A stretch of DNA of 64,000 bases from an uncultured Cohaesibacter sp. (GTDB taxonomy: Bacteria > Pseudomonadota > Alphaproteobacteria > Rhizobiales > Cohaesibacteraceae): the NCBI GenBank assembly GCA_963676485.1, contig OY781115.1. One strand, written 5' to 3'. The number at the start of each line of letters is the position of its first letter. Position 1 is the first letter of the stretch. The notes under the pieces were generated by a model. That model saw nothing but the letters and a program-made list of their open reading frames with translations, was not told where the DNA came from and ran no database searches. This document shows positions 17,771 through 39,115 of this stretch, one piece after another. The position numbers and the translations under genes are program-made.

Positions 17771-18742
17771 CTAGGCTTTGATCAAGGCCTGGGCGAGAGC
17801 TTGATCAACGCAAAGATGCGTTACATAGCCACCGCGAATGGCAGCCAGCACAGCATTCTTGCGCCTGATGCTCCCGGCGATAAGCAATTTTTTGGGTACG
17901 CGATGCAATGCGTCAAAATCTATCGCAATGAGCCGTTTATCGGGCGCCACGCGAACGGGCTCGCCTTCGGCATTGATATAGCGGCAACAGATCACTCCTA
18001 CCGCACCGGCATCCCTTGCCGCTTCCAGCTCTTCAGGTGTCGTCATGTGCGCCCGAATCATATGGGTCTGGTCTTGCACATGACCGATGGAAGCAACATA
18101 CATGTCCAGATTGTTGAGCTTTTCCAGTTGCTGCTTGATTGTTGGTTCATTCCGCAACAATTCTGCGATTTCGTCATTGGACCCGACAGCAGGCGCATGC
18201 AATGTCGAACATTGTGCTGACAGCATATTGGCTATCTGGATCGCACAGCGTTCGGAGGCCGGAACAGTGTCTGATCTCATGGAGCCGATCATCTGCCGCA
18301 CAATGACATCTCTCTTGTGGACCTTCGGCATTTGCTCGGATACCGTGAAAACGGTTTCGCCCCATGCAACCCCGAGTGTTTCTCCCGGCGCGATAATTTC
18401 AGCCAATGCAATGGCGCCAACGCGGCCCAACTGGCGCAGCATTTCATTTCTTGTAACTTTAGATCCGTCGACACCACTGGTTGAGATGTAAACATCTGTT
18501 AGGCCATATTTCTCGCCCAAGTCCTGAGACAGAGACGATCCTGCGAGATATTTACCATCAACCAGAATGTCGACCACACGATTTTCGCGCGCCTCACGCA
18601 GCATATTGACGACGGTGGCGCGTGAAACATTCATACGTTTCGCAATGTCGTTTTGGGTCAAACCCTCCCCATAATAGAGGAGGGCCACATTTGCGAGCGT
18701 TGATTCTTTGTTAAAATATCGTGAGGTTTGGTCTTTGTTCAT
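17771..18742 (-). CDS. SorC/DeoR-family sugar-binding transcriptional regulator
   Basis: LLYYGEGLTQNDIAKRMNVSRATV HTH, LGVAWGET, LHAPA. Confidence 0.92.
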   Translation of the reverse strand: MNKDQTSRYFNKESTLANVALLYYGEGLTQNDIAKRMNVSRATVVNMLREARENRVVDILVDGKYLAGSSLSQDLGEKYGLTDVYISTSGVDGSKVTRNEMLRQLGRVGAIALAEIIAPGETLGVAWGETVFTVSEQMPKVHKRDVIVRQMIGSMRSDTVPASERCAIQIANMLSAQCSTLHAPAVGSNDEIAELLRNEPTIKQQLEKLNNLDMYVASIGHVQDQTHMIRAHMTTPEELEAARDAGAVGVICCRYINAEGEPVRVAPDKRLIAIDFDALHRVPKKLLIAGSIRRKNAVLAAIRGGYVTHLCVDQALAQALIKA

Positions 18743-18745
18743 GAG

Positions 18746-19411
18746 CTAGCTATTAACAGACTTCTGCCCTGCTTGGCCATAGTTCTTTCTGAACCATTCA
18801 AAGCAACGAACAATTTCTTCTTGTGGTAATTCCTCAACCTCACCGCGCAACATCGCCAGATGCGTGGTCATGGCCGCTTCCTCGAGATACATGGCCACGG
18901 ACGTGGCTTCCGTCGCGGACTTGCCCATCGTGAAAACGCCATGGGCCTTGACCAGAGCCGCATAGCCGCCTTGGGCCGCCTCAAGAATGGCCTCGCCTGT
19001 ATCCACTTCACCCGCAGTTGCGTAGCGTGAGCAGGGCACATCGCGGCCAATCATGTGGGTAATGGGAGTGAGTACCGCAGGGATACGCTCTCCACGCGCA
19101 GCAAAGCTGGTCGCATAGGGCGAATGGGTGTGCGTAATGCCGCCGATATCATCCCTGTTGCGATAGAGATAAAGATGAATGCCAGCATCAACCGATGGTT
19201 TCATTTCACCCTCGATGACGTTACCGTCGATGTCGATGACCACCATCGTGTCGGGTGTCAATTTCGCAAACTTCACGCCCGATGGCTTGATAACAATAAG
19301 CCCTGTCTCTTTGTCGCGGCCGGATACATTGCCCCCCGACCCGACGACAAGATTGTTGCGCGGTAATTCGTGGTTCTGATCGCAGACTTCTTCTTTAAGT
19401 GCTTCAAGCAT
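18746..19411 (-). CDS. araD: Class II aldolase/epimerase, L-ribulose-5-phosphate 4-epimerase-like
   Basis: GNVSGRD, IKPSG, KPSVD (Asp as in AraD rather than the FucA Glu), HTHS, HG, C-terminal YGQ; start MLEALK at 19411. Confidence 0.75.
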   Translation of the reverse strand: MLEALKEEVCDQNHELPRNNLVVGSGGNVSGRDKETGLIVIKPSGVKFAKLTPDTMVVIDIDGNVIEGEMKPSVDAGIHLYLYRNRDDIGGITHTHSPYATSFAARGERIPAVLTPITHMIGRDVPCSRYATAGEVDTGEAILEAAQGGYAALVKAHGVFTMGKSATEATSVAMYLEEAAMTTHLAMLRGEVEELPQEEIVRCFEWFRKNYGQAGQKSVNS

Positions 19412-20468
19412 CACTGGCCTCCTTTGGAATGCCGTGCGGGTAAACGAGAATTTTGAGGGATTTTTCGGCGTCGACCAACATGCGGAAAGCCTCGGCAGAA
19501 TCCGCGATGTCAAACCGGTGGGAAATGGCTTCGTCAGCCATGATCCGCCCCGCTTCGAGCAATCGGATGTAACTGTAGGTGTCCGTATGGTCGGAGGAAT
19601 AGCGCGAGGTGATGGTCACCTGATTGAAATAGGCCTTGTTGCCATCCTGCACCCAATCGGTGTCCGGAGCGAGCGGTGCGCCCAAATGCAGGCATCCGCC
19701 TTCTTCCACCAGACTGCCCGCAAGCTCCCATGCCGGCGGGAAAGGCGCGATCACAATAACCGTATCTGCAAGGCGTCCATTGTTGAGGGCTCTAAGGGCT
19801 GCAACCGGATCACTCTCTGTTTTTGGGTTGATTGTGTGCGTTGCCCCAAAGCGTTTGGCTTGTTCAAGGCGCCAGTCAGAGAAGTCCAGCGCAATCACCT
19901 TGCCCGCACCAAATAGCGGGGCCATATGCACAAAGCCCTGTCCCATGAAGCCGGCTCCAACGACTGCCACTGTGTCGCCGGGCTGAATGTTGCACACTTT
20001 AAGGCCTGACATCACACAGGACCACGGCTCGATTGTCACCGCCGCCTCGGTCGAGATGCTGTCCGGCAGTTTGTGGGCATCCATCATTAGATGCTGAGCG
20101 GTAACGCGGTAATATTCGCAGACGCCGCCCGGATCGAGTTTGGTGGTTGAATAGAAAGGATCGCGCGTGAAATGGCCGCGCCGTGACCAATGGCTGTTCA
20201 CACGCCCCACATGGTGATTGATGAACAGACGATCCCCGATCGCGAAGTCTGTCACATTGGCTCCCACTTCCACCACTTCGCCAATTGGCTCATGTCCGAG
20301 CACCTTGGGCTTGGATTTCTTGTACCAGGACATAGCCTCGCCGCCACACAATCCGCAGACCAGTGTCTTGAGAAGAACCTCATCGGGTCCGATTTCCGGG
20401 ATTGGCCGCTCTTCAAGGCGAATGTCGTCAATCGCATAATAGACAGCGGCTTTCATCATGTTGCTCAT
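19404..20468 (-). CDS. Zn-dependent (MDR) polyol dehydrogenase, iditol-dehydrogenase-like
   Basis: CGLCGGE, GHEPIG, EPWSC, GAGFMG, ALD; start MSNMMK at 20468. Confidence 0.85.
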   Translation of the reverse strand: MSNMMKAAVYYAIDDIRLEERPIPEIGPDEVLLKTLVCGLCGGEAMSWYKKSKPKVLGHEPIGEVVEVGANVTDFAIGDRLFINHHVGRVNSHWSRRGHFTRDPFYSTTKLDPGGVCEYYRVTAQHLMMDAHKLPDSISTEAAVTIEPWSCVMSGLKVCNIQPGDTVAVVGAGFMGQGFVHMAPLFGAGKVIALDFSDWRLEQAKRFGATHTINPKTESDPVAALRALNNGRLADTVIVIAPFPPAWELAGSLVEEGGCLHLGAPLAPDTDWVQDGNKAYFNQVTITSRYSSDHTDTYSYIRLLEAGRIMADEAISHRFDIADSAEAFRMLVDAEKSLKILVYPHGIPKEASDA

Positions 20469-21979
20469 AGTTCGTCTTTCATCTGTTTTAGCTGCTTTGA
20501 CAGAAGTCGGGCATTTTCTGAGAGAAGCTTGTAGCGTTTGAAAATCTTGCAATAGGCTGCGTGTGCCTCGGCGTTCGGTTCATAGCGCTGGACTTTCTCT
20601 TCGCGCTTGACCAAAGACATGACGTCGCCCAGTCCTGCTGCAGCCGCTCCGATGCAGGCAGCCCCCCAGAGCCCCTGATCGGAGGCTTCAGAGACAATAA
20701 TAGGCACGCCAATCACATCGCTGATGATCTGGCACCAAACGGGGTTTTTCGACCCTCCGCCAGTCAGTTGAACAGGTTCGCTCGGCAGGCCCCCTTCCAT
20801 CTCAAAACAGTGACGCAGGCTCATTGCGCCTCCCTCCAAAACGGCTCGCCCCATGTCAGCTTTTGTGCTTCTTGAGGTTAAGCCTTGAAAGGAGGCGGTC
20901 ACGTTAGGAGAGACGAAAGGGGCACGCTCACCATTCAAATAGGGCAGGAACGTTACGCCATTTGCGCCTACGGGGACTTTGGTTACAAGTTCGTTGAGTT
21001 TGGCCGCCACTTCGCCGGGCGTATCGCCACCAAGGCTCAGTGGATGCAGCTCCGTAAACCAGTTAAACGCCGACGCTCCGGTTGTGGGCGCCAAAATTCT
21101 GATGATCACATCCGATGTGGCATGCAGCGCGCTGGCACCCACGGGCTGGTCGTGTGTTTCAATATGGTCTGTTAAAATGTTGACAACGGCGGTCGTACCC
21201 ATGATCATCATGGTCTGGCCGGGTTGGTCCATCCCCATCCCGACAATCATCGCAGTAAGATCCAATGTCGGCGTGGAAACCGGCAAACCTTCCGGCAGAC
21301 CTGTTAAGCGGGCGGTCTCGGCGGTCAAGGTACCCAACGGAGTTGTTGCCCGTTGCGGCTCAAGCAAATGCTGCTGGATGTCGGAGCAGTCAAGGGCGTC
21401 TGCAACGTCGGAACTGTAAGTGCGTGTAGAGAAATCAATGAACGGTATGGAAGCGTTCGAGAAATCGGTTCCTGCCTGACCGGTCAAGTTCAAACCGATC
21501 CAGTCGCCGCAGGTGAAAATCGTTGCGATTTTGCTGACGATTTCCGGTTTATTTTGCTTCAACCAGCGCCATAGCGCACCAGAAGTGCCAGGCCATAAGG
21601 ACGTGTGGCAGGCCCGACCAACAGCGGCGGCTTTTCCAGATGTCGCGAGTTGTTCGACATCTGCTGATGCGCGCGTGTCGTTCCAGAGCATGGCAGGACC
21701 CACGGGCTTGCCTGCCTCATCAACGGCCCAAAGCCCATCGCCCTGAGCGCTGATACCCAGCGAGACAGGAACAAAGTCATTGATTTTGCTCGCAATGGAT
21801 TTCAATGCGTCCAAAACCACGGAAAGGACCGCATTCATGTCCTGCTCAGATTTGCCTTCGCGTCCTGTTACATCCGGTGCAGATTTCTCCACCATTGCCA
21901 CTATCTGACCGGTCGAATCATACGCAGCGGCCTTGATCGAGGTTGTCCCAATATCAAGGCCAAGTCTCACAGCTGTCAT
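20465..21979 (-). CDS. FGGY-family carbohydrate kinase (erythritol kinase/L-xylulose kinase-like)
   Basis: GLDIGTTSIKA, SAQGDG, MLWNDTR, FLPYLNGER, LTGGGSKN; GGAGG RBS before MTAVRL at 21979. Confidence 0.88.
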   Translation of the reverse strand: MTAVRLGLDIGTTSIKAAAYDSTGQIVAMVEKSAPDVTGREGKSEQDMNAVLSVVLDALKSIASKINDFVPVSLGISAQGDGLWAVDEAGKPVGPAMLWNDTRASADVEQLATSGKAAAVGRACHTSLWPGTSGALWRWLKQNKPEIVSKIATIFTCGDWIGLNLTGQAGTDFSNASIPFIDFSTRTYSSDVADALDCSDIQQHLLEPQRATTPLGTLTAETARLTGLPEGLPVSTPTLDLTAMIVGMGMDQPGQTMMIMGTTAVVNILTDHIETHDQPVGASALHATSDVIIRILAPTTGASAFNWFTELHPLSLGGDTPGEVAAKLNELVTKVPVGANGVTFLPYLNGERAPFVSPNVTASFQGLTSRSTKADMGRAVLEGGAMSLRHCFEMEGGLPSEPVQLTGGGSKNPVWCQIISDVIGVPIIVSEASDQGLWGAACIGAAAAGLGDVMSLVKREEKVQRYEPNAEAHAAYCKIFKRYKLLSENARLLSKQLKQMKDEL

Positions 21980-22042
21980 ATAAGTACCTCCCGGACAGCA
22001 AATTATCGAGTTCTTAGATAATACAAATGACAAATAATCGAT

Positions 22043-22101
22043 CATATGTAAAGAAATAAGACAAAAAAATATTGACATGTGTAAAAAATTTTTACATGTG
22101 T
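22043..22101. promoter_or_regulatory. Divergent promoter with TGTAAAAA-A-TTTTTACA palindrome and TTGACA; candidate SorC operator
   Basis: 17-bp palindrome 22080-22096; ACATGTGT direct repeat at 22075 and 22094; CATATGTAAA at 22043; TTGACA at 22072. Confidence 0.6.
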
Positions 22102-22192
22102 ATAGAGCAATGTAGTTCACTTTTAAGGCAGGGTCTAGCATCTGGGAGGTTGGAGGATGCTGCCTGAATTAGAATCCGAAGGGGAGGATAGA

Positions 22193-23161
22193 ATGAAACT
22201 CAAGCTAATCACTTTGGTATCTGCGGCAGCGATGCTGTTTGCAGGTTCCGCAAATGCTGAAGATTTGAGTCTTGCAGGAAAGCGCATCGGCATTGCCGTT
22301 GTCGGCACACAGCATTTCTGGGATCGTGAAGCGTTCAATGGTGCCGTTTCCACCGTCGAGAAACTCGGTGGTGAAGCTGTCCCGGTCGATGGTGGCCGCG
22401 ACAACCAGGTGCATGCCGACAATCACGACATTTTGCTTACCAACAAAGTGGATGCTGTCATCTCCATTCTGGGTGATGCGGCTGTAGAACCCAAATTCAA
22501 GGCACTTACAGAAGCTGGTATTCCGGTCTTTACCGTTGATCACCCATCGCAATATTCCGTGAACAACACCACATCCGACAACTACTATATGGGAACAACC
22601 ATTGGACGCTTCATGGCCGATGCCATTGGTGGCAAGGGCAAGGTTGCTGTTTTCAATGCGTTCGAGAAATCTCTGCGCATTTGCGGCATCCGCGTAGGGC
22701 TGTGGAAGTATGTTCTTCAGGATTATCCGGAAATCGAAATCATTCAGCCAGAGCTTGCTGAAGCCTATGCAAATGCGCCTGAAGATGCGCGTAAGAAAAC
22801 CCTTGATTTGCTGAGCCAATATCCAGAAGGCACACTTGATGTCATCCATGTTGGCTGCTGGGACCAACCCGCCATTGGTGTGGTTCAGGCACTTGAAGAA
22901 ACCGGCCGGACCGATGTTCTGGTAACAGCGTTGGATGGTGGCCCGGATACTCTGGAAATCATGGCGGAAGACGGCAGCCCATTCGTTGCCAACGTTGCGC
23001 AGCAGCCAAACAAGATTGGTGCAACCGCTGCGAAAAATGTTGCTCGTTACTTTGCTGGCGAAACCCTGCTTCCTCAGACATATGTCGACGTTGTTCCTAT
23101 CAACGGACAGGACGGGGCCAAGAAAGCTTACGAAGAACTGGGCTACGGCACACTCGACTAA
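22193..23161 (+). CDS. CUT2 sugar ABC substrate-binding protein (RbsB-like fold)
   Basis: Signal peptide MKLKLITLVSAAAMLFAGSANA; two-lobed PBP1-type sequence. Alternative start 22157. Confidence 0.88.
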   Translation: MKLKLITLVSAAAMLFAGSANAEDLSLAGKRIGIAVVGTQHFWDREAFNGAVSTVEKLGGEAVPVDGGRDNQVHADNHDILLTNKVDAVISILGDAAVEPKFKALTEAGIPVFTVDHPSQYSVNNTTSDNYYMGTTIGRFMADAIGGKGKVAVFNAFEKSLRICGIRVGLWKYVLQDYPEIEIIQPELAEAYANAPEDARKKTLDLLSQYPEGTLDVIHVGCWDQPAIGVVQALEETGRTDVLVTALDGGPDTLEIMAEDGSPFVANVAQQPNKIGATAAKNVARYFAGETLLPQTYVDVVPINGQDGAKKAYEELGYGTLD

Positions 23162-23247
23162 GCGTCATTCCTTCTTGATATAAAATATCGGCGGCTGGTT
23201 GCTATCGGCTGCCGATGACCAGAATATCCATATGGGAGGATTAGGTC

Positions 23248-24774
23248 GTGTCTGATTTCGCTCTTGAGATGCGAAACATCACCAAAGAATTTCCCGGTGT
23301 TCGCGCGCTTGATCAAGCGAGCTTGTCCATCAAGCCCGGTGAAATTCACGGTCTCGTCGGAGAAAATGGCGCCGGCAAATCTACAATCATCAAGGTGCTT
23401 GCCGGTGTCTATAAGCCCGAAGCGGGACACGTGGATGTTTTTGGCAAAGCCCTGCCACAGGGGTTTGACCCAACAGCTGTCCATGATGCGGGGGTGCGGT
23501 TCATCCATCAGGAACTGCATTTGGTGCCATATTTTACAGTTGCCGAATCCGTGTTCATGGCGCAGGAGAAATCCGATTGGAAAGGGCTTAAGTCCTCAGA
23601 TATGCGCAAGAAGACCGAAGAGTTTCTTCGCGAGAAACTTGCGGTTTCAATATCCGGCAAGCGTCTGGTTCGGGATCTGAGCACTGCTGAGCGCAAGCTC
23701 GTCCAGATTGCCCGCGCACTCATTGATGATGAGGCCAAGATCGTGGTCTTTGATGAACCGACGGCACCACTCGCAAGTGGCGAAGTCGAGACATTGATGA
23801 ATGCGATCGCCCAGCTGAAAGAATCGGGTATATCGATTCTTTATGTCTCCCATTATCTCGATGAGATTACCGATATTTGCGATCGTGTGACTGTCTTTCG
23901 CCAAGGCAAGAATGTTGCTGTCTTTGACGAAATTTCCAAGTCGAGCGGTCAAGAGCTGGTCTCTGCCATGGTTGGCCGTGATTTGGGCTCGCTTTATCCG
24001 GAAAGCAACAGAATTCCGGGAAGTCCCGTGCTGGAATTGAAAGAATTCGGCGATGGTGACAACTTCCGAAACGTCAATCTGTGTGCACACCGGGGGCAGA
24101 TTCTGGGAATTGCAGGTCTGATCGGCTCTGGCCGTCAAGAACTGATCGATTGCATTTATGGCCTGAGAAGCGCCAATGAAGGCAAGATGTTCCTCAATGG
24201 CTCCCAGATTTCAATTCGCAACGCAGCGCAAGCTGTGAAAAATGGTGTTGTCTTGGTTCCAAGGGACAGAAGGCAGGACGGTCTGGTTTTGCCTATGACA
24301 GTCACCGAAAATGTGACATTGGCAACCTTGGACCAGGTTTCCTCTTTTGGTCTTGAAAACCGGACTTCGTCCAAGGCCTCTGCCCATAAGCAGATCAAGG
24401 ATCTGGACATCCGGACACCATCCGCTGAGACCGTGACGCGTTTGCTCAGCGGCGGCAACCAGCAGAAGGTCGTTCTGGGCCGTTGGTTGGCCAAGGACGC
24501 AAAAGTATTCATTCTCGATGAACCAACTGTCGGTGTCGATGTTGGGGCACGCGTCGAGATTTACCAATTGATCGAGCAATTGGCAGCCAATGGAACAACA
24601 GTCATTGTGTCGTCTTCCGATCCGGCAGAACTGATCGGTATCTGTGATCGGATCGCTGTCTTGATGCGTGGTGAAATAACCCACGAGGTTGAAACCGATA
24701 ATTTGACGGTTGATCGGCTGGTTGCAATTACGACAGGTGCAGAAAAGAGGGAGGATCTCGCAAATGCAAGCTAA
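23248..24774 (+). CDS. CUT2 sugar ABC ATPase (RbsA-like)
   Basis: GENGAGKS, DEPTA, LSGGNQQKV. Confidence 0.93.
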   Translation: MSDFALEMRNITKEFPGVRALDQASLSIKPGEIHGLVGENGAGKSTIIKVLAGVYKPEAGHVDVFGKALPQGFDPTAVHDAGVRFIHQELHLVPYFTVAESVFMAQEKSDWKGLKSSDMRKKTEEFLREKLAVSISGKRLVRDLSTAERKLVQIARALIDDEAKIVVFDEPTAPLASGEVETLMNAIAQLKESGISILYVSHYLDEITDICDRVTVFRQGKNVAVFDEISKSSGQELVSAMVGRDLGSLYPESNRIPGSPVLELKEFGDGDNFRNVNLCAHRGQILGIAGLIGSGRQELIDCIYGLRSANEGKMFLNGSQISIRNAAQAVKNGVVLVPRDRRQDGLVLPMTVTENVTLATLDQVSSFGLENRTSSKASAHKQIKDLDIRTPSAETVTRLLSGGNQQKVVLGRWLAKDAKVFILDEPTVGVDVGARVEIYQLIEQLAANGTTVIVSSSDPAELIGICDRIAVLMRGEITHEVETDNLTVDRLVAITTGAEKREDLANAS

Positions 24775-25741
24775 TGCGATCAGAGGAAATATCCTCGGCG
24801 AGGTCATCGGTGCAGCGCCCGTAATGATCTTTGCGGTGCTTCTGATTTACATCGGAATGAATGCGCCAAACTTCTTGACGCTGATCAACCTCAAGCTGAT
24901 TCTGATGCAGAGTCTGCCAATCGTGCTGGTTTGTGTCGGCCTTTCGGCCGTTGTCATGGCGGGCGGCGATGATGCGGTCTCTGGCGGTATTGATCTTTCC
25001 ATTCCTGCAACATGTGTTTTGTGTGCAGGGATCATAGCGAGCACGATTACGACTGGTACACCGCTTATTCTGGCGGCACTCTATGCATTGGTCGCAGCCC
25101 TGATCGTTGGATCAATCAATGCGTTTCTTGTCACCCGCGTTGGCATGACCCCTCTGTTGACATCGCTGTCCATGTTTGTGGCCGTTGTCGGGGTTAACAA
25201 GGTTGTCACCCAAAGTCGCCGCATTAACGTCAACAACGAAACCATCCTCTCCTTGCGCGATGGATCTCTCCTTGGCGTGCCACTGGGCATTTGGGTTGTC
25301 GGTCTGGTTGTTCTGGTTGGCTATCAGTTGATGCACCGAACCAAGTGGGGGCTCAACATGCAGGCGGTTGGTGGAAGTCGGGATGCGGCAGAAATTTCTG
25401 GCCTCAACACCAATCGCCTGTTTGCCCAGTCCTTCGTTATTGCAGCGGTCCTTGGGTTCATAACCAGCTTCTTTGTGATCGCCAGAGGCTCGGGCATTTC
25501 ACCCGGCGTGCAAGACAATCTGATGCTGGAAATGGTGCTTGCCACATTCCTGGGCGCCGCTTTCTCTCCGCGCAGGGTCGTGACGATGTGGGGCGCTGTT
25601 CTGGGGGCTGTTCTCGTCGCAGCCATTTCGATCGGCTTCAAGTCGATGGGCGTGAATGTCTTCTGGACCGGCCTCATCAAAGGGTCAATGATCGTTGTTG
25701 TCGTTGCAATGGGAGCCATTTCCCAGAGGGTACAACGATGA
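24764..25741 (+). CDS. CUT2 sugar ABC permease
   Basis: GGIDLS, AVGGSRDAAEISG; start MQANA at 24764. Confidence 0.9.
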   Translation: MQANAIRGNILGEVIGAAPVMIFAVLLIYIGMNAPNFLTLINLKLILMQSLPIVLVCVGLSAVVMAGGDDAVSGGIDLSIPATCVLCAGIIASTITTGTPLILAALYALVAALIVGSINAFLVTRVGMTPLLTSLSMFVAVVGVNKVVTQSRRINVNNETILSLRDGSLLGVPLGIWVVGLVVLVGYQLMHRTKWGLNMQAVGGSRDAAEISGLNTNRLFAQSFVIAAVLGFITSFFVIARGSGISPGVQDNLMLEMVLATFLGAAFSPRRVVTMWGAVLGAVLVAAISIGFKSMGVNVFWTGLIKGSMIVVVVAMGAISQRVQR

Positions 25742-26727
25742 GTATTTCTTCCATTCCAGGCAAGGGGAATAAAGTGAACTTTCCGAGTCTAAAAAGCACC
25801 TTTGTAAGATATGGCTTTGTTGTCGTCTTCGTGTGTTTCTTCCTGTTCTTTGCCGCATGGAACCCGGTGTTTGTGCAGGCACAGAACCTGACCAATATCT
25901 TTGAAGCATCATCGATCTTGTTGATCCTGGCGCTGGGGATGACTTTGGTTGTTGCAACCGGCGGCATTGATCTTTCGGTCGGGATTGCCCTCGACTTCGG
26001 AGCAGCATTCTCGGTGGTCGCCATGAAATCCTACGGGATGGACTGGTGGAGTGCTTCGATGATCGGCATTGCTGGCGGAAGCCTCGTGGGCATGTTGAAC
26101 GCCGCGCTTGTTGTTGGATTGAAGATCAGTCCATTTTTGGCAACTCTGAGCACATTCTTTATCGGCTCGTCCGTTCAGCGCATTTTCACCAATGGTGGCG
26201 GCCCCATCTCTTACCGAAGGATGCCGATTGAATATCGCAATCTGGCGCAAGGCGAGATCTATGGGATTCCGACGGAAATTGTCATTGCAGCCGTGGTGGC
26301 GATTATCTACTTCATCATTCTTGAACGGTCCATTTGGGGTCGACAGATCCATGCGATGGGCATGCAGAGATCAGCTTCCATCGTTGCCGGTCTACGCGTG
26401 AACAAGCTTCTGATCATTTGCTTTATCGCTGCGTCAGCCACATGCGCCATTGCGGGTTTGCTCGCTGCGTCCAATCTTAGAATGTTCACGCCACTGGCAG
26501 GCTTTGCCTATCTTCTCGATGCGATTGCTGCAGTCTTTATCGGAGCTGCCCTTCATCCACGCGGCAGGCCCAATATACCGGGCACTGTGGCTGGGGTGCT
26601 TTTCCTGGGAATGGTTGCCAATGGCCTGAATTTGATGGGGTTGAACTTCAACACCAAGGACGCCCTCTCTGGGATCATCCTTGTCTCGGCTCTTGCACTG
26701 GCCGTTGCACAAAGAAAGATGCGCTGA
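25738..26727 (+). CDS. CUT2 sugar ABC permease (second)
   Basis: GGIDLSVG, LLDAIAAVFIGA; ATGA overlap with the previous gene. Confidence 0.9.
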   Translation: MSISSIPGKGNKVNFPSLKSTFVRYGFVVVFVCFFLFFAAWNPVFVQAQNLTNIFEASSILLILALGMTLVVATGGIDLSVGIALDFGAAFSVVAMKSYGMDWWSASMIGIAGGSLVGMLNAALVVGLKISPFLATLSTFFIGSSVQRIFTNGGGPISYRRMPIEYRNLAQGEIYGIPTEIVIAAVVAIIYFIILERSIWGRQIHAMGMQRSASIVAGLRVNKLLIICFIAASATCAIAGLLAASNLRMFTPLAGFAYLLDAIAAVFIGAALHPRGRPNIPGTVAGVLFLGMVANGLNLMGLNFNTKDALSGIILVSALALAVAQRKMR

Positions 26728-26793
26728 CTATCAAGAGATGGGGCGGCCTCTTGCACCGCCTCGTTTGACCTACACCGCTTTTCTCCCAAAACT

Positions 26794-26825
26794 AAACCCC
26801 CGGACATTGTCCGAGGGTTTTTTTT
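26794..26825. terminator. Bidirectional intrinsic terminator
   Basis: AAACCC-C-CGGACA-T-TGTCCG-A-GGGTTT followed by a T-run, between convergent genes. Confidence 0.75.
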
Positions 26826-26861
26826 AAGGTTGATACCATTATCGCAATGGAGGATGCCGGT

Positions 26862-29126
26862 TCAGGCCGAGAGGATTGGCGGTTTGTCTATCGTTAAGGC
26901 AGGCAGCGCGCCCTGCCACTTCTCAACGCGCACCAATGCGGTATGAGCGATGTTCCCTTGGGAGAGACTGGAGCATCCCTTGTCCTTGGTCAGAACATTC
27001 GGATTGCCGTGCACCTCTATCGCACTGCCATTCACGATTTGAGGGTCGAACCAGGCCCCCGTGGCAAGCGACACACAATCGCGCCGGATATCATCGCAAT
27101 ATCTCAATCCCGCAAGGCAGGAGCCACGTTCATTGAATATCCGCACAATTGATCCGTTCTCCAAGCCTCTGGCTCTTGCTGTCTCGGAATGGATATAAGC
27201 TGGCTCTCTCCCCTCGATCTTGTCGGCAAGCGCTTCAGACCCTCTGTCATTTTGTGAGTGAAGGCGCGTGTCCGGCTGCCCTGATATCAAGTGAAGTTCG
27301 TCTTCTTCTGCACTCAACAGGCTCTCACATGGCTCCAGCCAAGACGGATGGGGTGGGCAATCTGGAAGCGCCATGGCTTCAATTGCTTCATTGAAAAGCG
27401 TGATTTTGCCGCTCTCTGTTTTGAGGGGGTGGGTTTCAGGGGCAGCGACAAACGCTTCAAGAGCGATACGCTGGGCCTTAGAGTTTGGCACATCAAACCG
27501 CCCCTTTTCGCGGAATACCTCAAAGGAGGGAAGCTCAAACCCTTCTGTTATCGCCACGCGCTGGCAATCTGTCCAGATTGTTTGTAGCCATCCGTCTTGA
27601 TCGCGCCCTTCTGTAAACTCTTCTGCGAATCCCAATTCCTTTGCCAGCAAGCTGAAAATCTCAAAGTCGCTCTTTGACTGCCCGAAAGGCTCAAAAAGCT
27701 GCGACATGAACAGTAATGTGCTGTCACGCCGGTTGATCATGATATCCTCGCGTTCCAAAGGGGTGGAGGCCGGAAAAACAATGTCGGCTCTTCTTGCCGT
27801 TGCGGTCCAGCTATGATCGTTGACAATAATCGTTTCCGGCTTGGCCCAGCCGGTTTCAAGCCTGTTCAGGTCCTGGTGATGATGGAACGGATTGCCGCCA
27901 GCCCACCAGACGAGCTTGATGTCGGGATAGGTTCTGTCCTGCCCGTTATATTTGTATGATCCTCCCGGATTGAGCAGCATATCCGCAATACGGGCCACCG
28001 GAATGTAATCAGAGACGGGATTGCGGCCTTGTGAAACGGATGGCCATGATATCAAGCGGGTAGGGCGGCCCACAGGCGTGGTTGATCCATAGCCAAAAGC
28101 AAAACCTGTTCCGGTTTTACCGATCTGGCCTAATGCACAGGCCAATGCGAGCCCCGCCCAAAGAGGTTGCTCGCCGTGATCACCGCGTTGAATCCCCCAT
28201 GACATGGCGATCATGCTCTTCTTGGACGCAAGTTGCGTGGCCAGCATTCTGATTTGTGTGGCGGGTAAATCACAAATGGACGCAGCCCATTCCGGTGTCT
28301 TGGCTTGCCCGTCTTTGCCATGCCCCAGAATATAGCTTTTGAACGCGTCCCAGCCGCTGGTGCAGCGCGCAAGGAAGTCTTCATCTGCCTTCCCTGTCTC
28401 AACAAGTACAAAGATCAAGGCGAGCAGCAAGGCTGTGTCCGTACCCGGTCGGATCGAAAGCCATTCAGATCCTGCAAGATCGCTTTTCTTTGGCGAGACA
28501 TTCACCAATTGGACATGCCGGTCTTGCAATGTCTTGAGCCAACCGGGAATTTCATGTTTGGACGTGCCTGCCGAGGCAATCTGGGCCGTTCGGCCTGAAA
28601 TGCCGCCAAAAACGAGCAACAGCTCGCAATGTTCTGCGACCAATGGCAACGAGGTCATTTCATCCTGAAAGGCACGGTTGCTCAGGCCCAGTATGTGCGG
28701 AAACAGAACTTCAGCGGCTGCGTGGGAATAGGTTTCCCGGGCGCCCACAAACCCTCCAGCCATATTCAGGAACCGCCGCAATTGGCTCTGGGCATGGTGA
28801 AAACGCCCGGCACTGGACCATCCGTAGGACCCGCCGAAAATCGCGCCATTGCCATAGTCTTCCTTGATACGCCGCACTTCTCGCGCTGCGAGTGAGACGG
28901 CTTGGTCCCAGCTGACTTCGATATATTTGTCGTTGCAGCGATTTTTGCCGCCGTCACCCTCCAGCCAACCCGCGCGTATGGCGGGTTGGCGGATGCGGCT
29001 ATTCTGATCGCGTGCAGCACTCTGCCAACCTTTCCCGATACGGGAAGGGGATGGGTCATCTGCAATAGGCCGCAAGCTCTTGTCGTCAATTTCGTAGGCG
29101 CCCCAATGGGCTGCGGTATATTTCAT
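26862..29126 (-). CDS. bisC: Cytoplasmic Mo-bisPGD S/N-oxide reductase (BisC/TorZ/DMSO reductase clade)
   Basis: AAHWG start, GSYGW (DMSOR Tyr/Trp), TYS Mo-ligand Ser, GNPFHH, RLHSQ, HGNPNVLT; no Tat signal and no Fe-S motif. Confidence 0.85.
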   Translation of the reverse strand: MKYTAAHWGAYEIDDKSLRPIADDPSPSRIGKGWQSAARDQNSRIRQPAIRAGWLEGDGGKNRCNDKYIEVSWDQAVSLAAREVRRIKEDYGNGAIFGGSYGWSSAGRFHHAQSQLRRFLNMAGGFVGARETYSHAAAEVLFPHILGLSNRAFQDEMTSLPLVAEHCELLLVFGGISGRTAQIASAGTSKHEIPGWLKTLQDRHVQLVNVSPKKSDLAGSEWLSIRPGTDTALLLALIFVLVETGKADEDFLARCTSGWDAFKSYILGHGKDGQAKTPEWAASICDLPATQIRMLATQLASKKSMIAMSWGIQRGDHGEQPLWAGLALACALGQIGKTGTGFAFGYGSTTPVGRPTRLISWPSVSQGRNPVSDYIPVARIADMLLNPGGSYKYNGQDRTYPDIKLVWWAGGNPFHHHQDLNRLETGWAKPETIIVNDHSWTATARRADIVFPASTPLEREDIMINRRDSTLLFMSQLFEPFGQSKSDFEIFSLLAKELGFAEEFTEGRDQDGWLQTIWTDCQRVAITEGFELPSFEVFREKGRFDVPNSKAQRIALEAFVAAPETHPLKTESGKITLFNEAIEAMALPDCPPHPSWLEPCESLLSAEEDELHLISGQPDTRLHSQNDRGSEALADKIEGREPAYIHSETARARGLENGSIVRIFNERGSCLAGLRYCDDIRRDCVSLATGAWFDPQIVNGSAIEVHGNPNVLTKDKGCSSLSQGNIAHTALVRVEKWQGALPALTIDKPPILSA

Positions 29127-29129
29127 AGA

Positions 29130-30203
29130 TCACAAATGCGGATCAAGGATCACCTTGATTTGCACTTCCCCTGGGTTTGGTTTACGCGAAAGGGCGGTTT
29201 CAAATTCCTCGAGCGGATAGCGATGGGTGATGCAGGCGTCACCATCAATCAGGCCACGCGCCATCAGATCCAGAGCCGTGGCATAGGTGAAGGGGGCGAG
29301 ATGACCGCCAAGAATATTCAGCTCCTTGAACTCGCCGAATATGTTGAGATCAACATTTACCTTGTCCTTATAGACCCCAAAGACAACAAGCGTGCCGCGC
29401 TTGCGGATCAGTTCCAGCCCTCTGGTGAAGGCGGATGTCTGCCCTGATGCTTCCAGATAAACATCGGCCCCGCGTCCCCCTGTCAGATCCCCAATCGCCT
29501 GATCCAGCTTCGGATCATCGGGATGGAAAGCAAGATCGGCTCCGAGTGTTTTCGCCAGTTCGCGTTTGGCTTCCCCGGGATTGACCAGAATGAGCTTTCG
29601 AGGGGTTTTCAGGCGGGCTGCTTGCAGCATTCCCATGCCGATCGGCCCTGCACCGGATACGACCACCACATCCTGAAACTGGATGTTGGCCCGCTCCACG
29701 CCGTGGATTGCATTGGCCAGTGGCTCGGTAAAGCAAGCTGCGTCATTGGACAGACCATCGGGCACCTTGTGGACCACGCAATCGGCTGGATAGATCATGT
29801 AATCCGCCCAGGCGCCATTGAGCGTCGCGCCAAGCACATCCATCTTGTCGCTCAGATGATAGAGCCCGCGTTGACGGAAATAATCATTCCCATAGGTGAT
29901 GTTGAGCTCTGCGACGGCACGATCGCCGACTTTGACGGCGTGGCGCTCTCCGGCCCCCTCTCCAAGTTCGACCACTGTACCGGTGAATTCGTGGCCCGGT
30001 ATGAACGGGAATGGGAACTCCCAAGGGGCTGTGGCGTCATACATGGCGCGATCCGCAGCACATATGCCTGACGCATCGACTTTCACCAAAATCTCGCCCG
30101 GGCCGGGTTCGGGTACCGGTTGCTTTGTAGTCAGGCGATGCTGTCCACCAAATCCGTGACACTGCACAGCACGCATCATCTTCCCTGTCATTTGTTCCTC
30201 CAA
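29130..30203 (-). CDS. Zn-dependent polyol dehydrogenase, EltD (erythritol/L-threitol dehydrogenase)-like
   Basis: GICAAD, PGHEF, EPLA, GAGPIG, GADVYLE and KELNILGGHLAP resemble the EltD family. Confidence 0.82.
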   Translation of the reverse strand: MEEQMTGKMMRAVQCHGFGGQHRLTTKQPVPEPGPGEILVKVDASGICAADRAMYDATAPWEFPFPFIPGHEFTGTVVELGEGAGERHAVKVGDRAVAELNITYGNDYFRQRGLYHLSDKMDVLGATLNGAWADYMIYPADCVVHKVPDGLSNDAACFTEPLANAIHGVERANIQFQDVVVVSGAGPIGMGMLQAARLKTPRKLILVNPGEAKRELAKTLGADLAFHPDDPKLDQAIGDLTGGRGADVYLEASGQTSAFTRGLELIRKRGTLVVFGVYKDKVNVDLNIFGEFKELNILGGHLAPFTYATALDLMARGLIDGDACITHRYPLEEFETALSRKPNPGEVQIKVILDPHL

Positions 30204-30250
30204 AGGCTATTTCTGATCGATTTTTCGCTCGCACAAAAAATCCTTCTTGA

Positions 30251-30288
30251 TTTTTACATATGAATATAATATTGACAATTGTAAAATG
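30251..30288. promoter_or_regulatory. Second divergent promoter with TTTTTACATATG...TGTAAAA; same motif as 22043-22101
   Basis: TTTACATATG at 30253 is the exact reverse complement of CATATGTAAA at 22043; TTGACA at 30272. Confidence 0.55.
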
Positions 30289-30301
30289 AGAGGAGATTGC
30301 T

Positions 30302-31228
30302 ATGCGCAATGAAAAAACGACAGAAGAGGTTGCTCTCGGTATTCGTCGTCGGGTGTTTGAGCACACGATGCGAAACAACGGGGGGTATCTGTCTCAGGCT
30401 TGTTCGGCAGCCGAGCAATTGGCTTGGTTGTATAACGAGCAGCTCAATCTGGGGGCACCAACGCTTCCAGCCATCCCGAAACCCTTTGCCGGCGTACCGT
30501 CTGCTGACAATCCCGATTATCACACGGGTGCGGGCTATAATGGACCGGCGTCACCGGAGTTTGATCGTCTCTTTATTGCGCCAGCCCATTACGCGCTGGT
30601 TGCCTATGCCACGCTGATTGAGGTGGGGCGTATGGATGAAGAAGGCCTCAAGATGTTCAACAAGGATGGCTCCTCCGTCGAGATGATCGGAGCGGAGCAT
30701 TCTCCGGGCATGGAAGTGCATAACGGCACGCTAGGGGTTGGTTTCTCCACCGCTGCCGGTCTTGCCTATGGCCGTCGCCTGAAGGGCGAAACCGGCAAGA
30801 CATGGGTCTTCATGTCCGATGGCGAAGTGGAAGAAGGCCAGACCTGGGAAGCGGTGCAGGCCGCGCGTTTTCATCGCATCGACAATCTGTGCGCCATCAT
30901 GGATGTGAATGAACAGCAATGCGATGGAGCCATGTCATCGGTGATGGAAGTGGGCGATATCCGCCAAAAACTCATCGATTTCGGTGCAGCATGCGTTGAA
31001 GTGGATGGTCATGATCTCGACGCCATCCGTCAGGCTTCCGAGGAACCCCATGAAGGACGTCCCCTGATCATCATGGCCCGGACCTCTCCGTTCAAAGCCA
31101 TGAATATTCTGGAAGAGCGGTTCCCACGTCTCCACTATGTGCGCTTCAAATCCGAAGAAGAGCGCGCCCGTTTCAACGTCTCGATTGCGGCAGACCTTGG
31201 TGTCGAGCCCGTCGATTACAGCCATTAA
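30302..31228 (+). CDS. Split transketolase, N-terminal (ThDP pyrophosphate-binding) subunit, atypical
   Basis: SDGEVEEGQTWEA...DVN ThDP motif, GTLGVG, VDGHD; GGYLSQACS where GH is usual. Confidence 0.88.
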   Translation: MRNEKTTEEVALGIRRRVFEHTMRNNGGYLSQACSAAEQLAWLYNEQLNLGAPTLPAIPKPFAGVPSADNPDYHTGAGYNGPASPEFDRLFIAPAHYALVAYATLIEVGRMDEEGLKMFNKDGSSVEMIGAEHSPGMEVHNGTLGVGFSTAAGLAYGRRLKGETGKTWVFMSDGEVEEGQTWEAVQAARFHRIDNLCAIMDVNEQQCDGAMSSVMEVGDIRQKLIDFGAACVEVDGHDLDAIRQASEEPHEGRPLIIMARTSPFKAMNILEERFPRLHYVRFKSEEERARFNVSIAADLGVEPVDYSH

Positions 31229-31240
31229 GGAGGCCTCATC

Positions 31241-32245
31241 ATGGTTGAAATGGTTAGTCGCCCCTATGCCCGCTCTTTCGAGAAATTCGCAGCCGGCAAT
31301 CCCGATATTCTGTGTCTGTCCGCCGATCTGACCTCATCCTGCGAGGTTGACGGCTTCCGGGATCGGCATCCGGATCAGTTTTTGAGCCTTGGCATGGCCG
31401 AGCAGAATATGCTCAGCTTTGCCGGTGGATTGGGCCTTGCTGGGTTCCGTCCCTTCATTCACACCTTTGGCGTCTTCATGTATCGCCGTCCCTATGACCA
31501 GTTGATGGCCTCCATTGCTTACCCCCGCAGAAAAGTACGGCTGATGGGCTTCTTGCCCGGGGTTACCACCCCCGGTGGGATGACCCATCAGTCGATTGAG
31601 GATATCTCGGTCATGCGCTCGATCCCCAATATGACCATATTGGAAACAGGCGACGCAACAGAGGTTGAATCCATTTGCGAGGCCGCCGACAGCATCGATG
31701 GACCGGTCTGGTGCCGGGTGCTGCGTGGCTCTGTGCCGCGTTTGTTCGATACCCCCATCAAGGTGGGTGAAATGCGTGTTCTGTCCGAAGGCGATGATAT
31801 TCTGGTTGTCACGGCAGGCATCACCACCGAAGAAGCCATGCGGGCGCGCTCTGCGCTCAAGGAGGCCGGGCTTTCCATCCGCCATCTGCATCTGCATACC
31901 ATCAAGCCGTTCGATGCCAAGGCATTGCTCGACCATATCGGTTCGGTCAAGCATGGGGTGATCACGCTGGAGAACCATGTCACCGAAGGCGGCATTGGCT
32001 CACTGGTTGCCGAGACCATGGCGGATGCCGGTGTTGGCAAGCGCCTTATTCGTCTGGGCCTCAAGGACACCTATGCCCATGGCGGATCACGGCCCTATCT
32101 GATGCGCTATTATGGTCTTGATGCCCTGGCACTCGTCAAGGGTATGGAAGATCTGATGGGGCAACAGTTCGGCATCACCGAAGATGACCTTGATACAGCC
32201 CGCGTCGAAGACGTTCACTCCCTCGTCAAGGCGGAGGCACTCTAA
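31241..32245 (+). CDS. Split transketolase, C-terminal (pyrimidine-binding) subunit, atypical
   Basis: SADL, GMAEQNM, THQ, IKPFD, ENH...GGIGS. Confidence 0.88.
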   Translation: MVEMVSRPYARSFEKFAAGNPDILCLSADLTSSCEVDGFRDRHPDQFLSLGMAEQNMLSFAGGLGLAGFRPFIHTFGVFMYRRPYDQLMASIAYPRRKVRLMGFLPGVTTPGGMTHQSIEDISVMRSIPNMTILETGDATEVESICEAADSIDGPVWCRVLRGSVPRLFDTPIKVGEMRVLSEGDDILVVTAGITTEEAMRARSALKEAGLSIRHLHLHTIKPFDAKALLDHIGSVKHGVITLENHVTEGGIGSLVAETMADAGVGKRLIRLGLKDTYAHGGSRPYLMRYYGLDALALVKGMEDLMGQQFGITEDDLDTARVEDVHSLVKAEAL

Positions 32246-32295: not shown

Positions 32296-32328
32296 ATAAA
32301 AGCCCCGCCATCATGGCGGGGCTTTTAT
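32296..32328. terminator. Bidirectional intrinsic terminator
   Basis: Long inverted repeat ATAAAAGCCCCGCCAT / ATGGCGGGGCTTTTAT between transketolase and dmsC. Confidence 0.85.
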
Positions 32329-33241: not shown

Positions 33242-33858
33242 ACCTCCTTGGGATTGCCAAGCAAACCAGAATGGTCATCCGTGGCGCGGGCCGTTCGACC
33301 GGGCGTAATCGTGAGATTGGGGTCAGTGAGCGTTGCAGCTGGCAGAGGAGCGATGGACGCTTGGCCTCCATATTTCGCTCGAAGCTCGTCAATGGGACCA
33401 AAATCAAGCGCGCGCAGGGGGCAGGATTCCACACAGACGGGTTGCAGCCCGAGCGAAATCCTCTCAGCGCATCCGTTACATTTGGTCATGATCCCCTTGC
33501 GTTCATCATATTGGGGGGCCCCATAAGGGCAGGCCATCTCACAAGACTGACACCCGATGCAGACATCCTCATTGACGGATACCAGCCCGTTATCTTCCTG
33601 CTTGTACATCGCCCCGGTTGGGCAGATCGAAACACAAATCGGATCCGAGCAATGATTGCAGGAAATTGACAGATAATAAGCGAAGACGTCGTTGGTCCAG
33701 CCATCGTCCGTTTTTTGCCAACCGCCGCCTGTGAATTCATAGACACGGCGGAAATTGATATCGGCGGGCAAATCTTTGTAATCCTTGCAAGCAAGCTGAC
33801 AGGTCTTGCAACCAGTGCAGCGGGATACGTCAATGTAGAATCCATATTCCTGCTTCAT
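33238..33858 (-). CDS. dmsB: DMSO reductase Fe-S subunit
   Basis: CTGCKTC..AC, CNHCSDP.C..C, CIGCQSCEMAC, CNGC...CVESC. Confidence 0.95.
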   Translation of the reverse strand: MKQEYGFYIDVSRCTGCKTCQLACKDYKDLPADINFRRVYEFTGGGWQKTDDGWTNDVFAYYLSISCNHCSDPICVSICPTGAMYKQEDNGLVSVNEDVCIGCQSCEMACPYGAPQYDERKGIMTKCNGCAERISLGLQPVCVESCPLRALDFGPIDELRAKYGGQASIAPLPAATLTDPNLTITPGRTARATDDHSGLLGNPKEV

Positions 33859-33867
33859 GTTCAGACC

Positions 33868-39097: not shown

Positions 39098-39115
39098 GGC
39101 AGGAAAACACGAAAT

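Follow-up and report, generated by a model that had tools for sequence, protein, structure and literature searches.

Several described systems each resemble one part of a compact gene block found in a stretch of 64,000 nucleotides (hereafter, the window) from an uncultured Cohaesibacter sp. (contig OY781115.1 of assembly GCA_963676485.1), in which a predicted molybdenum S/N-oxide reductase related to BisC is encoded among the enzymes of a putative pentose or pentitol pathway, together with a split transketolase (TK). In Rhodospirillum rubrum, MtnA and a RuBisCO-like protein (RLP) convert methylthioribose-1-phosphate to 1-methylthio-D-xylulose-5-phosphate. The L-arabinose/L-arabitol route (AraB, AraD) and the pentitol operons bring together a dehydrogenase, an FGGY kinase and an AraD-fold epimerase in one operon. 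BisC (E. coli, Rhodobacter) and DorA/TorA are two-domain enzymes without an Fe-S domain, of which BisC is cytoplasmic; methionine-S-sulfoxide is reduced by E. coli BisC, and Tyr114 in DorA favours S-oxides. We know of no member of the BisC/DorA/TorA family that belongs to a sugar operon, nor of any molybdenum bis(molybdopterin guanine dinucleotide) (Mo-bisMGD) oxotransferase that has yet been assigned a step in a carbohydrate pathway. Two-subunit TKs that reside in catabolic clusters and handle non-standard ketose phosphates include AptAB, the apulose-4-phosphate transketolase of D-apiose catabolism, and SqwGH of the sulfoquinovose sulfo-transketolase pathway. To our knowledge, the first active-site His of transketolases (GGH or SGH; His26 in E. 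coli) is universally conserved. Regulators of the SorC family (DeoR, LsrR, CggR) sense sugar phosphates.

With the methylthioadenosine (MTA)-isoprenoid shunt of R. rubrum and the dihydroxyacetone phosphate (DHAP) shunt for methylthioribose and 5-deoxyribose, the locus in the window has in common a proposed intermediate, a 1-substituted xylulose-5-phosphate, and relatives of its TK (77–97% identical) close clusters that encode bona fide MtnK and MtnA, an RLP and a FucA-type aldolase. Unlike the R. rubrum shunt, however, no MtnK, MtnA or RLP is encoded in the window, where a polyol dehydrogenase, an FGGY kinase and an AraD-like epimerase occur instead; a TK takes the place of the R. rubrum cupin methylsulfurylase, and a molybdenum S-oxide reductase is added. 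As in the L-arabinose/L-arabitol route and the pentitol operons, one operon encodes a dehydrogenase, an FGGY kinase and an AraD-fold epimerase, but the window proteins score below the AraD and XylB cut-offs, His replaces Asp120 of AraD, and the presumed regulon adds an atypical TK, a second medium-chain dehydrogenase/reductase (MDR) and the molybdenum reductase. The BisC-like enzyme shares the Fe-S-free, two-domain architecture of BisC and DorA/TorA and the predicted cytoplasmic location of the former; in contrast to the canonical alphaproteobacterial BisC, to which it is at most 49% identical, it forms a separate clade and is embedded in, and apparently co-regulated with, a sugar operon. Set beside AptAB and SqwGH by description only, the window TK differs in carrying Tyr for the His of GGH and in its ties to methylthioribose genes and to a molybdenum enzyme. 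Some relatives of the locus (type B, below) resemble Pseudomonas AtsRBC/AtsA, in that an SsuA-family binding protein, an ABC (ATP-binding cassette) transporter, a CxPxR sulfatase and a formylglycine-generating enzyme (FGE) are encoded beside the core genes, with the same candidate operator. This sulfate-ester module is absent from the window, which has a CUT2 importer and the second MDR (MDR2) instead, and in the relatives its partners are sugar enzymes, not sulfur-starvation genes. The enzyme families are thus all known ones; what appears to be new, judged from sequence, is their combination, the BisC subclade, the GGY TK and the shared regulon. Full-text literature searches found no description of the gene combination or of the MtnK/MtnA/RLP/TK cluster.

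The principal result is that the BisC-like molybdoenzyme is, on the evidence of gene neighbourhoods, an integral and conserved member of these clusters, whatever the rest of the cluster looks like. One genome per species was scanned with the N-terminal TK subunit (TK-N) as query, which yielded 80 loci with TK-N proteins 77–97% identical. The presence/absence matrix and gene maps were derived from tblastn; greedy calls of open reading frames (ORFs) in loci of high GC content gave spurious antisense families (x11, x27 and x31), which were set aside. Among the 80, 36 have a BisC-like gene (53–92% identity), which in every case adjoins the TK genes. Homologous clusters therefore do not consistently lack the molybdoenzyme, the finding which an initial annotation of this DNA had named as fatal to its proposal that the enzyme is part of a SorC-regulated polyol/ketose system; the neighbourhood comparison of GGYLSQACS-bearing TKs was its own suggestion, and the clade-specific adjacency to TK, together with the common operator palindrome described below, supports the proposal.

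The converse scan, in which metagenomes were queried with the BisC-like protein, served as a control. Cluster genes were carried by 3 of the 5 loci with homologues of at least 53% identity, and by none of the 75 loci with homologues of 44–49%. Matches on plasmids were divided similarly, at 58–67% identity inside clusters and at most 48% elsewhere (including Cereibacter, Paracoccus denitrificans and Phaeobacter). Eight of nine members of the BisC clade that were looked up are adjacent and divergent to TK, while the ninth, from Cohaesibacter celericrescens, stands alone. In a neighbor-joining tree, the TK-linked BisC-like proteins all fell into a single clade, with three unlinked ones nested within it.

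The pairing of BisC and TK was observed in at least three architectures, in Rhodobacterales and Hyphomicrobiales, and the cluster gene set in dozens of genera of marine Alphaproteobacteria. Type A clusters, which include the window, carry the CUT2 importer, with MDR2 and BisC beside TK, plus the kinase, MDR1, the AraD-like enzyme and SorC; they were detected in Marinibacterium, Pararhodobacter, Roseobacter, Tateyamaria, Yoonia, Roseinatronobacter, Martelella, Sagittula and an Ensifer metagenome-assembled genome (MAG). In type B, BisC heads a BisC-kinase-MDR1-AraD-like-SorC operon that lies head-to-head with TK, the BisC gene overlapping the start of the FGGY gene; such loci lack the CUT2 importer and MDR2 and instead encode a sulfatase, an FGE and an SsuA-like ABC importer. 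The sulfatase is a cytoplasmic CxPxR (formylglycine-type) enzyme (loci L084, L085, L090, L091, L174, L177 and others), and the carriers belong to Oricola, Paracoccus, Ruegeria, Cognatishimia, Gymnodinialimonas, Nioella, Marinovum and Roseobacter cerasinus. Type C clusters have the same TK without BisC. In one further locus, L048, a Gfo/Idh/MocA oxidoreductase, a TIM-barrel isomerase, an Rpe-like epimerase and a ROK kinase replace MDR1, FGGY and the AraD-like enzyme, and the BisC-TK pair is kept. MDR2 is missing from L044 and L053 and lies downstream of TK in L095 and L099; in the Hoeflea prorocentri cluster, which also lacks MDR2, an aldo-keto reductase gene adjoins the TK genes. A BioY biotin transporter gene occurs in L048 (5493–6086), between the alternative sugar-enzyme set and the SorC-BisC-TK core, and is the sole hint that ties the BisC clade to biotin.

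Gene calls in the window were based on the ORF listing and on Pfam and NCBIfam profile searches of its proteins. The features of the block are as follows.

17771–18742, minus strand: SorC/DeoR(Bacillus)-type regulator with a helix-turn-helix (HTH) and a sugar-phosphate-binding domain, last gene of the kinase operon (PF04198, 1.8e-58, plus HTH)
18746–19411, minus strand: AraD-like enzyme of the class II aldolase fold, 221 aa, predicted pentulose-5-phosphate 4-epimerase (PF00596)
19404–20456, minus strand: MDR zinc dehydrogenase 1 (MDR1), 350 aa, predicted polyol 2-dehydrogenase (PF08240 and PF00107)
20465–21979, minus strand: FGGY carbohydrate kinase, 504 aa, xylulokinase-like (PF00370 and PF02782)
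22072–22104: two tandem operator-like palindromes, TTGACATGTGTAAA and TTTACATGTGTATA, in the divergent promoter region between kinase and binding protein
22193–23161, plus strand: CUT2 periplasmic solute-binding protein, polyol-type (PF13407)
23248–24774, plus strand: ABC ATPase with two fused nucleotide-binding domains (PF00005 twice)
24764–25741, plus strand: ABC permease 1 (PF02653; 325-aa orthologue in loci L001 and L002)
25738–26727, plus strand: ABC permease 2 (PF02653; 329-aa orthologue in L001 and L002)
26789–26825: hairpin between the convergent transporter and BisC operons, likely a bidirectional terminator (18-nt arms, 83% complementary; terminator-like match at 26801–26813)
26862–29126, minus strand: predicted cytoplasmic Mo-bisMGD S/N-oxide reductase of the TK-linked BisC subclade, 754 aa (PF00384 and PF01568)
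29130–30191, minus strand: MDR zinc dehydrogenase 2 (MDR2), 353 aa, first gene of the MDR2-BisC operon (PF08240 and PF00107)
30272–30285: operator-like palindrome TTGACAATTGTAAA in the divergent promoter region between MDR2-BisC and TK
30302–31228, plus strand: N-terminal subunit of the split TK (TK-N; thiamine diphosphate (ThDP)/PP-domain), with GGY for the canonical GGH (Pfam Transketolase_N)
31241–32245, plus strand: C-terminal subunit of the split TK (TK-C; Pyr and C-domain) (PF02779 and PF02780)
32296–32328: intrinsic terminator that ends the TK operon and the convergent dmsCBA operon (15-bp stem with 8 GC pairs, A and T runs at the flanks)

Between 17771 and 32328 the window thus contains 12 tightly packed genes in four transcription units: FGGY kinase-MDR1-AraD-like-SorC, the CUT2 ABC importer, MDR2-BisC-like and TK-N-TK-C. 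The minus-strand kinase operon (21979–17771) is compact, with overlaps or gaps of no more than 8 nt between genes. The importer (22193–26727) diverges from it, the MDR2-BisC operon (30191–26862) converges on the importer, and the TK genes (30302–32245) diverge from MDR2-BisC. MDR2 and the BisC-like gene are assigned to one operon because 3 nt separate MDR2 from the BisC start, and the hairpin at 32296–32328 is the strongest terminator of the region. The gene list, the two divergent intergenic regions and the terminator at 32296 of the initial annotation were all recovered at the same positions; its single CUT2 transporter unit proved to be an importer, as it had held, but with two permease genes in place of one.

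A 14-nt palindrome, TTKACANNTGTAAA, was searched for throughout the 64 kb with up to one mismatch. It was detected at 22072, 22091 and 30272 only (3 sites versus 0.13 expected), and all three sites fall in the two divergent promoter regions, kinase/transporter and MDR2-BisC/TK. Among the relatives, TK-N is preceded by the palindrome, at a distance of no more than 250 bp, in 11 of the 18 type A loci, 14 of the 22 type B loci and 10 of the 42 type C loci. The CUT2 binding protein has it at the matching upstream position in 12 of 16 type A loci, and it also precedes the SsuA-like binding protein (13 of 15) and the sulfatase (10 of 16). Control loci yielded 3 matches in 816 kb. Since the palindrome is common to their promoters, the BisC operon, TK, the transporters and, in type B, the sulfatase are assigned to one putative regulon, and the SorC regulator presumably binds TTKACANNTGTAAA as its operator. 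We consider it quite probable that the 14.5-kb block is a single regulon of four units to which the molybdoenzyme is integral. A molybdenum enzyme would then be built into a carbohydrate pathway at the level of both operon and candidate operator, and conserved as such across Rhodobacterales and Hyphomicrobiales.

By every sequence criterion applied, the BisC-like protein is a predicted cytoplasmic type III S-/N-oxide reductase, an assignment made because of its likeness to DorA and BisC and its conserved Tyr/Trp pocket and Ser ligand. It matches PF00384 and PF01568 but not PF04879, and thus lacks the N-terminal 4Fe-4S domain. Over its full length it is 39% identical to E. coli BisC, and its best solved relative is Rhodobacter DorA (1eu1, E 2e-168). 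In the alignment with DorA, Y114, W116, Y146 and the molybdenum ligand S147 correspond to Y101, W103, Y133 and S134. The protein begins with MKYTAAHWG, of which residue 5 aligns with residue 11 of mature DorA, and no RR motif is visible in the sequence, so that a twin-arginine signal peptide is absent. Its score against the canonical BisC model TIGR00509 was 815.4 bits, under the cut-off of 1017.55; by score and by phylogeny, it is placed outside the canonical BisC.

The second distinctive component of the cluster is the TK, the two subunits of which score 143.7 bits (TK-N) and 192.6 bits (TK-C) against NF004559 (cut-off 488). In TK-N, FMSDGEVEEG and MDVNEQ align with D155 and N185 of TktA (the GDG...N ThDP/metal motif); in TK-C, GMAEQNM aligns with the cofactor-activating Glu, E411, and the His of THQ with H473. 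The GGYLSQACS motif noted in the initial annotation is present, and the longer NNGGYLSQACS is invariant in all 91 TK homologues, with Tyr in place of the first catalytic His. TK-C has TPGGMTHQ where TktA has GEDGPTHQ, and the substrate residues D469 and H461 are not conserved. The ThDP/metal and Glu features of a transketolase are accordingly kept, and the canonical His26/His461/Asp469 set is not. The initial annotation had let the substrate enter the pentose phosphate pathway; with an atypical TK, the products of which may differ from the ordinary ones, such an entry is no more than a conjecture.

The same TK is shared by the type C clusters, which comprise some 40 loci, including those of other Cohaesibacter species (L005, L086–L088, L010, L019, L054 and about 35 more). 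Their gene order is CUT2 importer, RbsD/FucU, GGY TK and RLP, divergent from MtnK, MtnA, SorC and a FucA-type aldolase or an aldolase-SDR (short-chain dehydrogenase/reductase) fusion. Here MtnK (TIGR01767, 464 bits versus a cut-off of 275) and MtnA (NF004326, 467 bits versus 271) score well above the respective thresholds, while the nearest solved structures are 3qfw for the RLP and 4ry8 for the binding protein. In one Cohaesibacter MAG, which carries both a type A and a type C cluster (L004 and L005), the TK genes of the two are 98.7% identical over exactly 1942 bp, and each differs by about 8% from the window (30302–32243). This pattern suggests a recent duplication or gene conversion limited to the TK genes. 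In the Ensifer MAG, type A and type C clusters flank a single TK pair. Because the TK is shared by both cluster types, the TK step is taken to be common to the methylthioribose route and the route of the window. Type C looks like an undescribed, transketolase-ended route for imported methylthioribose or 5-deoxyribose, and the GGY TK with its MtnK/MtnA/RLP sister cluster would give methylthioribose salvage a new ending. The window cluster itself, which encodes neither MtnK nor MtnP, MtnA or an RLP, is not counted as a member of methionine salvage or of the MTA-isoprenoid shunt, though it may work towards the same intermediate.

The remaining enzymes were compared with families of known function. 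The AraD-like protein, 78–87% identical across genera, scores 243.9 bits against NF005123 (the L-ribulose-5-phosphate 4-epimerase subfamily; cut-off 251). As in AraD, the three His zinc ligands (His95/97/171), Asp76 and Tyr229 are conserved in the alignment; the sister-cluster aldolase has a FucA-type Glu at the position of Asp76. The FGGY kinase best matches XylB among the NCBIfam models (281 bits versus a cut-off of 380), and its nearest solved structures are xylulokinases. MDR1, present in types A and B, is nearest to the structures of sorbitol dehydrogenase, ketose reductase and xylitol dehydrogenase, while MDR2 resembles Tdh and sorbitol dehydrogenase, is 71–94% identical in type A loci and is absent from type B. 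The regulator has the N-terminal HTH and C-terminal PF04198 domain of the SorC family, is kept in types A and B at 43–57% identity, and scores below the NCBIfam cut-offs for DeoR and LsrR. In L177 (14910–16556), one product of 548 aa was called that spans both the AraD-like enzyme and SorC (Aldolase_II and Sugar-bind); there, either the two genes have fused or sequencing has introduced a frameshift. The importer has the components of a CUT2 (ribose-type) system: a Peripla_BP_4 binding protein, a double-ABC ATPase, which is AraG/XylG/RbsA-like with scores below those cut-offs, and BPD_transp_2 permeases from two genes. The nearest solved structures of its binding protein are 3l49 and 4wt7 (E 1e-63 to 8e-69), and 4WT7 was crystallised with allitol (PMC10318746). 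An Lsr (autoinducer-2) system was considered and rejected, given the scores for LsrR (116 bits versus 486), LsrK (121 versus 528) and LsrA (369 versus 586); neither LsrF nor LsrG was found in the window cluster.

These assignments invite the reading that the window encodes an ordinary pathway for L-arabitol, ribitol, xylitol or allitol, in which L-ribulose is converted through L-ribulose-5-phosphate to D-xylulose-5-phosphate and passed by an extra TK into the pentose phosphate pathway, the BisC-like protein being a housekeeping biotin/methionine sulfoxide reductase carried as a passenger. The dehydrogenase, FGGY kinase and AraD-like epimerase match the L-arabitol/L-arabinose logic exactly, the binding protein resembles one that binds allitol, and a passenger role would agree with the full BisC/DorA active-site set of the BisC-like enzyme, with the BioY gene adjoining BisC in L048 and with the three clade members that stand alone. 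The clade, however, is defined by its adjacency to TK, with canonical homologues occurring in such clusters in 0 of 75 cases; the BisC gene lies in the same operon and under the same candidate operator as sugar genes; and it stays beside TK even where transporter and upstream enzymes have been exchanged completely (compare types A and B, L048 and L044). Moreover, the TK is atypical, both in its GGY motif and in the loss of D469 and H461, and is shared with the methylthioribose cluster rather than with pentitol clusters, while type B has a co-regulated sulfatase. We therefore regard a plain pentitol pathway with a passenger reductase as quite unlikely, and hold it likely that the regulon centres on TK, serves a modified pentose or pentitol and counts the molybdenum enzyme among its catalysts.

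For such a regulon, the following pathway is proposed. The substrate would be a pentose or pentitol with an oxidised heteroatom on its terminal carbon, the likeliest candidate being 5-deoxy-5-methylsulfinyl-ribose or -ribitol, the oxidised form of methylthioribose, a by-product of S-adenosylmethionine (SAM). It would be taken up by the polyol-type CUT2 transporter and its S=O group reduced to the thioether in the cytoplasm by the Mo-bisMGD enzyme, with its Ser-ligated molybdenum and Tyr/Trp S-oxide pocket. MDR2 would reduce the sugar to the polyol; in the Hoeflea cluster, which has no MDR2, an aldo-keto reductase gene lies beside TK. MDR1 would oxidise the carbon beside the substituted end, so that the two dehydrogenases together "invert" the sugar into a 1-substituted L-ribulose. 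The xylulokinase-like FGGY kinase could then phosphorylate the free 5-OH, and the AraD-like 4-epimerase would form 1-substituted D-xylulose-5-phosphate, from which the atypical TK may produce glyceraldehyde-3-phosphate and a C2-sulfur fragment. The same 1-substituted xylulose-5-phosphate would be expected from the sister route through MtnK, MtnA and the RLP, with the same TK. Methylsulfinyl-adenosines occur in marine animals (PMC4278203). Among the substrates guessed at in the initial annotation, a methylthio-sugar sulfoxide gains independent support from the sharing of the TK with the MtnK/MtnA/RLP cluster; this specific substrate is put forward with considerable doubt.

The linkage data that favour this pathway would equally suit a unit for methionine or sulfur salvage, in which the sugar genes recycle a methylthio-pentose or -pentitol and the molybdenum enzyme acts on a free small sulfoxide, such as methionine-S-sulfoxide, dimethyl sulfoxide (DMSO) or the oxidised C2-sulfur product of TK. 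The known purpose of the MtnK/MtnA clusters that share the TK is methionine salvage, the four key active-site residues are identical to those of DorA and BisC, and one stand-alone member of the BisC clade occurs in a Cohaesibacter that has only the MtnK/MtnA/RLP/TK cluster. The clusters, however, contain no genes for methionine synthesis or methionine transport, in type B the kinase operon begins with BisC, whose stop codon overlaps the next start codon, and a substrate within reach of the canonical BisC would call for no separate subclade. In addition, SorC regulators sense sugar phosphates, and induction would therefore follow the sugar rather than methionine sulfoxide. A free sulfoxide as the substrate thus seems unlikely, and reduction of a sulfoxide borne by the sugar itself is preferred.

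Several observations weigh against the proposed pathway. Each of its chemical steps is read from family resemblance, and no enzyme of the cluster attains an NCBIfam equivalog cut-off. The Asp120/Tyr229 acid/base pair of AraD is half kept in the AraD-like protein, as the position of Asp120 is occupied by His, and sorbitol-dehydrogenase-type enzymes normally require a free C1-OH beside the carbon that is oxidised. We know of no indication that methylthioribose sulfoxide or methylthioribitol is an abundant marine metabolite. The structure nearest to the type C binding protein, 4ry8, may be a methylthioribose-bound one, but full-text searches yielded no description of it. Three members of the BisC clade (L003, L093 and L094) are not beside TK and have uninformative neighbours, and BisC is missing from one type B locus (L021). 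The type B sulfatase, FGE and SsuA-like importer, of the sulfonate/sulfate-ester type, are co-regulated with the core genes; a sulfate ester substrate is therefore implied, which plain methylthioribose sulfoxide does not explain.

The sulfatase module would be accounted for if the heteroatom is arsenic (or nitrogen or selenium), so that the regulon degrades algal dimethylarsinoyl-ribosides, the molybdenum enzyme reduces As(V)=O and the ribose skeleton is then handled as a 5-substituted ribose. Type B would import and desulfate the sulfate (or sulfonate) arsenosugar by way of the SsuA-like transporter and type A would take the neutral glycerol arsenosugar through CUT2, which places the CUT2/MDR2 and sulfatase/SsuA-like modules under one operator. 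Arsenosugars are the only candidates we can name that unite an oxide with a pentose, a polyol aglycone and a sulfate ester. Their precursor, 5'-deoxy-5'-dimethylarsinoyl-adenosine, is an analogue of methylthioadenosine, as would fit a TK shared with MtnK/MtnA clusters. Carriers are associated with algae or dinoflagellates (Marinovum algicola, Hoeflea prorocentri), and the window sequence is present in sequencing runs from, among others, an algae metagenome and a plastisphere metagenome. On the other hand, none of the cluster types has a glycosidase or lyase that would free the riboside, ars genes are not adjacent, and the active site keeps the equivalent of Tyr114, which favours S-oxides in DorA; arsenosugars are, furthermore, trace compounds, so that a widespread regulon of the carbon type would be surprising. 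An arsenosugar is accordingly thought very unlikely, and sulfur is retained as the heteroatom in the proposed pathway.

Taken as a whole, the regulon with its integral molybdenum enzyme and the sulfoxide-sugar mechanism together are held tentatively, with slightly more doubt than belief. A bolder version, which we regard as improbable though worth stating, is that two undescribed branches of SAM by-product recycling in marine alphaproteobacteria converge on the GGY TK. One would be the MtnK/MtnA/RLP branch; the substrate of the other, that of the window, would be a methylthio-pentose or -pentitol in oxidised (sulfoxide) or conjugated (sulfate-ester) form, with the molybdenum reductase acting directly on the sugar-borne sulfoxide. 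TK would cleave 1-methylthio-xylulose-5-phosphate to glyceraldehyde-3-phosphate, with a ThDP-dependent beta-elimination that releases methanethiol and an acetyl unit. If this were true, the methanethiol-releasing TK would bring a new C-S-releasing reaction to the marine sulfur cycle, and the reductase would be the first Mo-bisMGD enzyme of carbohydrate catabolism. A methylthio-sugar sulfoxide as substrate would likewise mean a new oceanic sink for SAM-derived organosulfur and, for the BisC family, substrates of a new class. The hypothesis is open to direct tests in cultured carriers, as complete plasmid sequences exist for Marinovum algicola DG 898 (pMaD5) and Paracoccus seriniphilus DSM 14827 (p420573); Sagittula marina, Hoeflea prorocentri and Martelella lutilitoris are carriers too. 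The public annotations of cultured carriers are generic ("molybdopterin-dependent oxidoreductase", "thiamine pyrophosphate-dependent enzyme", "Anaerobic dehydrogenase").

The carriers are known from seawater, sediment, algae and plastics. The block itself is 91–92% identical in DNA to a Cohaesibacter MAG contig, and TK-N is 99% identical to a protein from an uncultured Cohaesibacter sp.; the block had no megablast match in any complete E. coli genome, and the organism is not enteric. A genomic island was considered and rejected, as the base composition is unremarkable.

A complete dmsCBA operon (DmsA with an Fe-S domain, DmsB and DmsC; 32387–36273, minus strand) converges on the TK operon, with which it has the terminator in common. 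Two different molybdenum S-oxide reductases, BisC-like and DmsA, are thus encoded within 10 kb of the window. A functional link to dmsCBA was rejected, since the adjacency is restricted to the 91–92% identical relative (L001/L004); the "dmsA" matches in other loci are cross-matches (26–31%) to BisC itself. On the other side of the block, a Fic/DOC-domain protein (16228–17424, minus strand) lies directly beyond the SorC gene, where the 92% identical L001 has a gene for glycoside hydrolase family 8. Synteny with L001 ends at about 36531, where L001 has a phage terminase. Past that point the window encodes (36776–42800 and 44451–47598) a dCache/CZB chemoreceptor, a second CUT2 ABC importer, and a TRAP binding protein together with an SDR and a GH88 (glycoside hydrolase family 88) unsaturated glucuronyl hydrolase.

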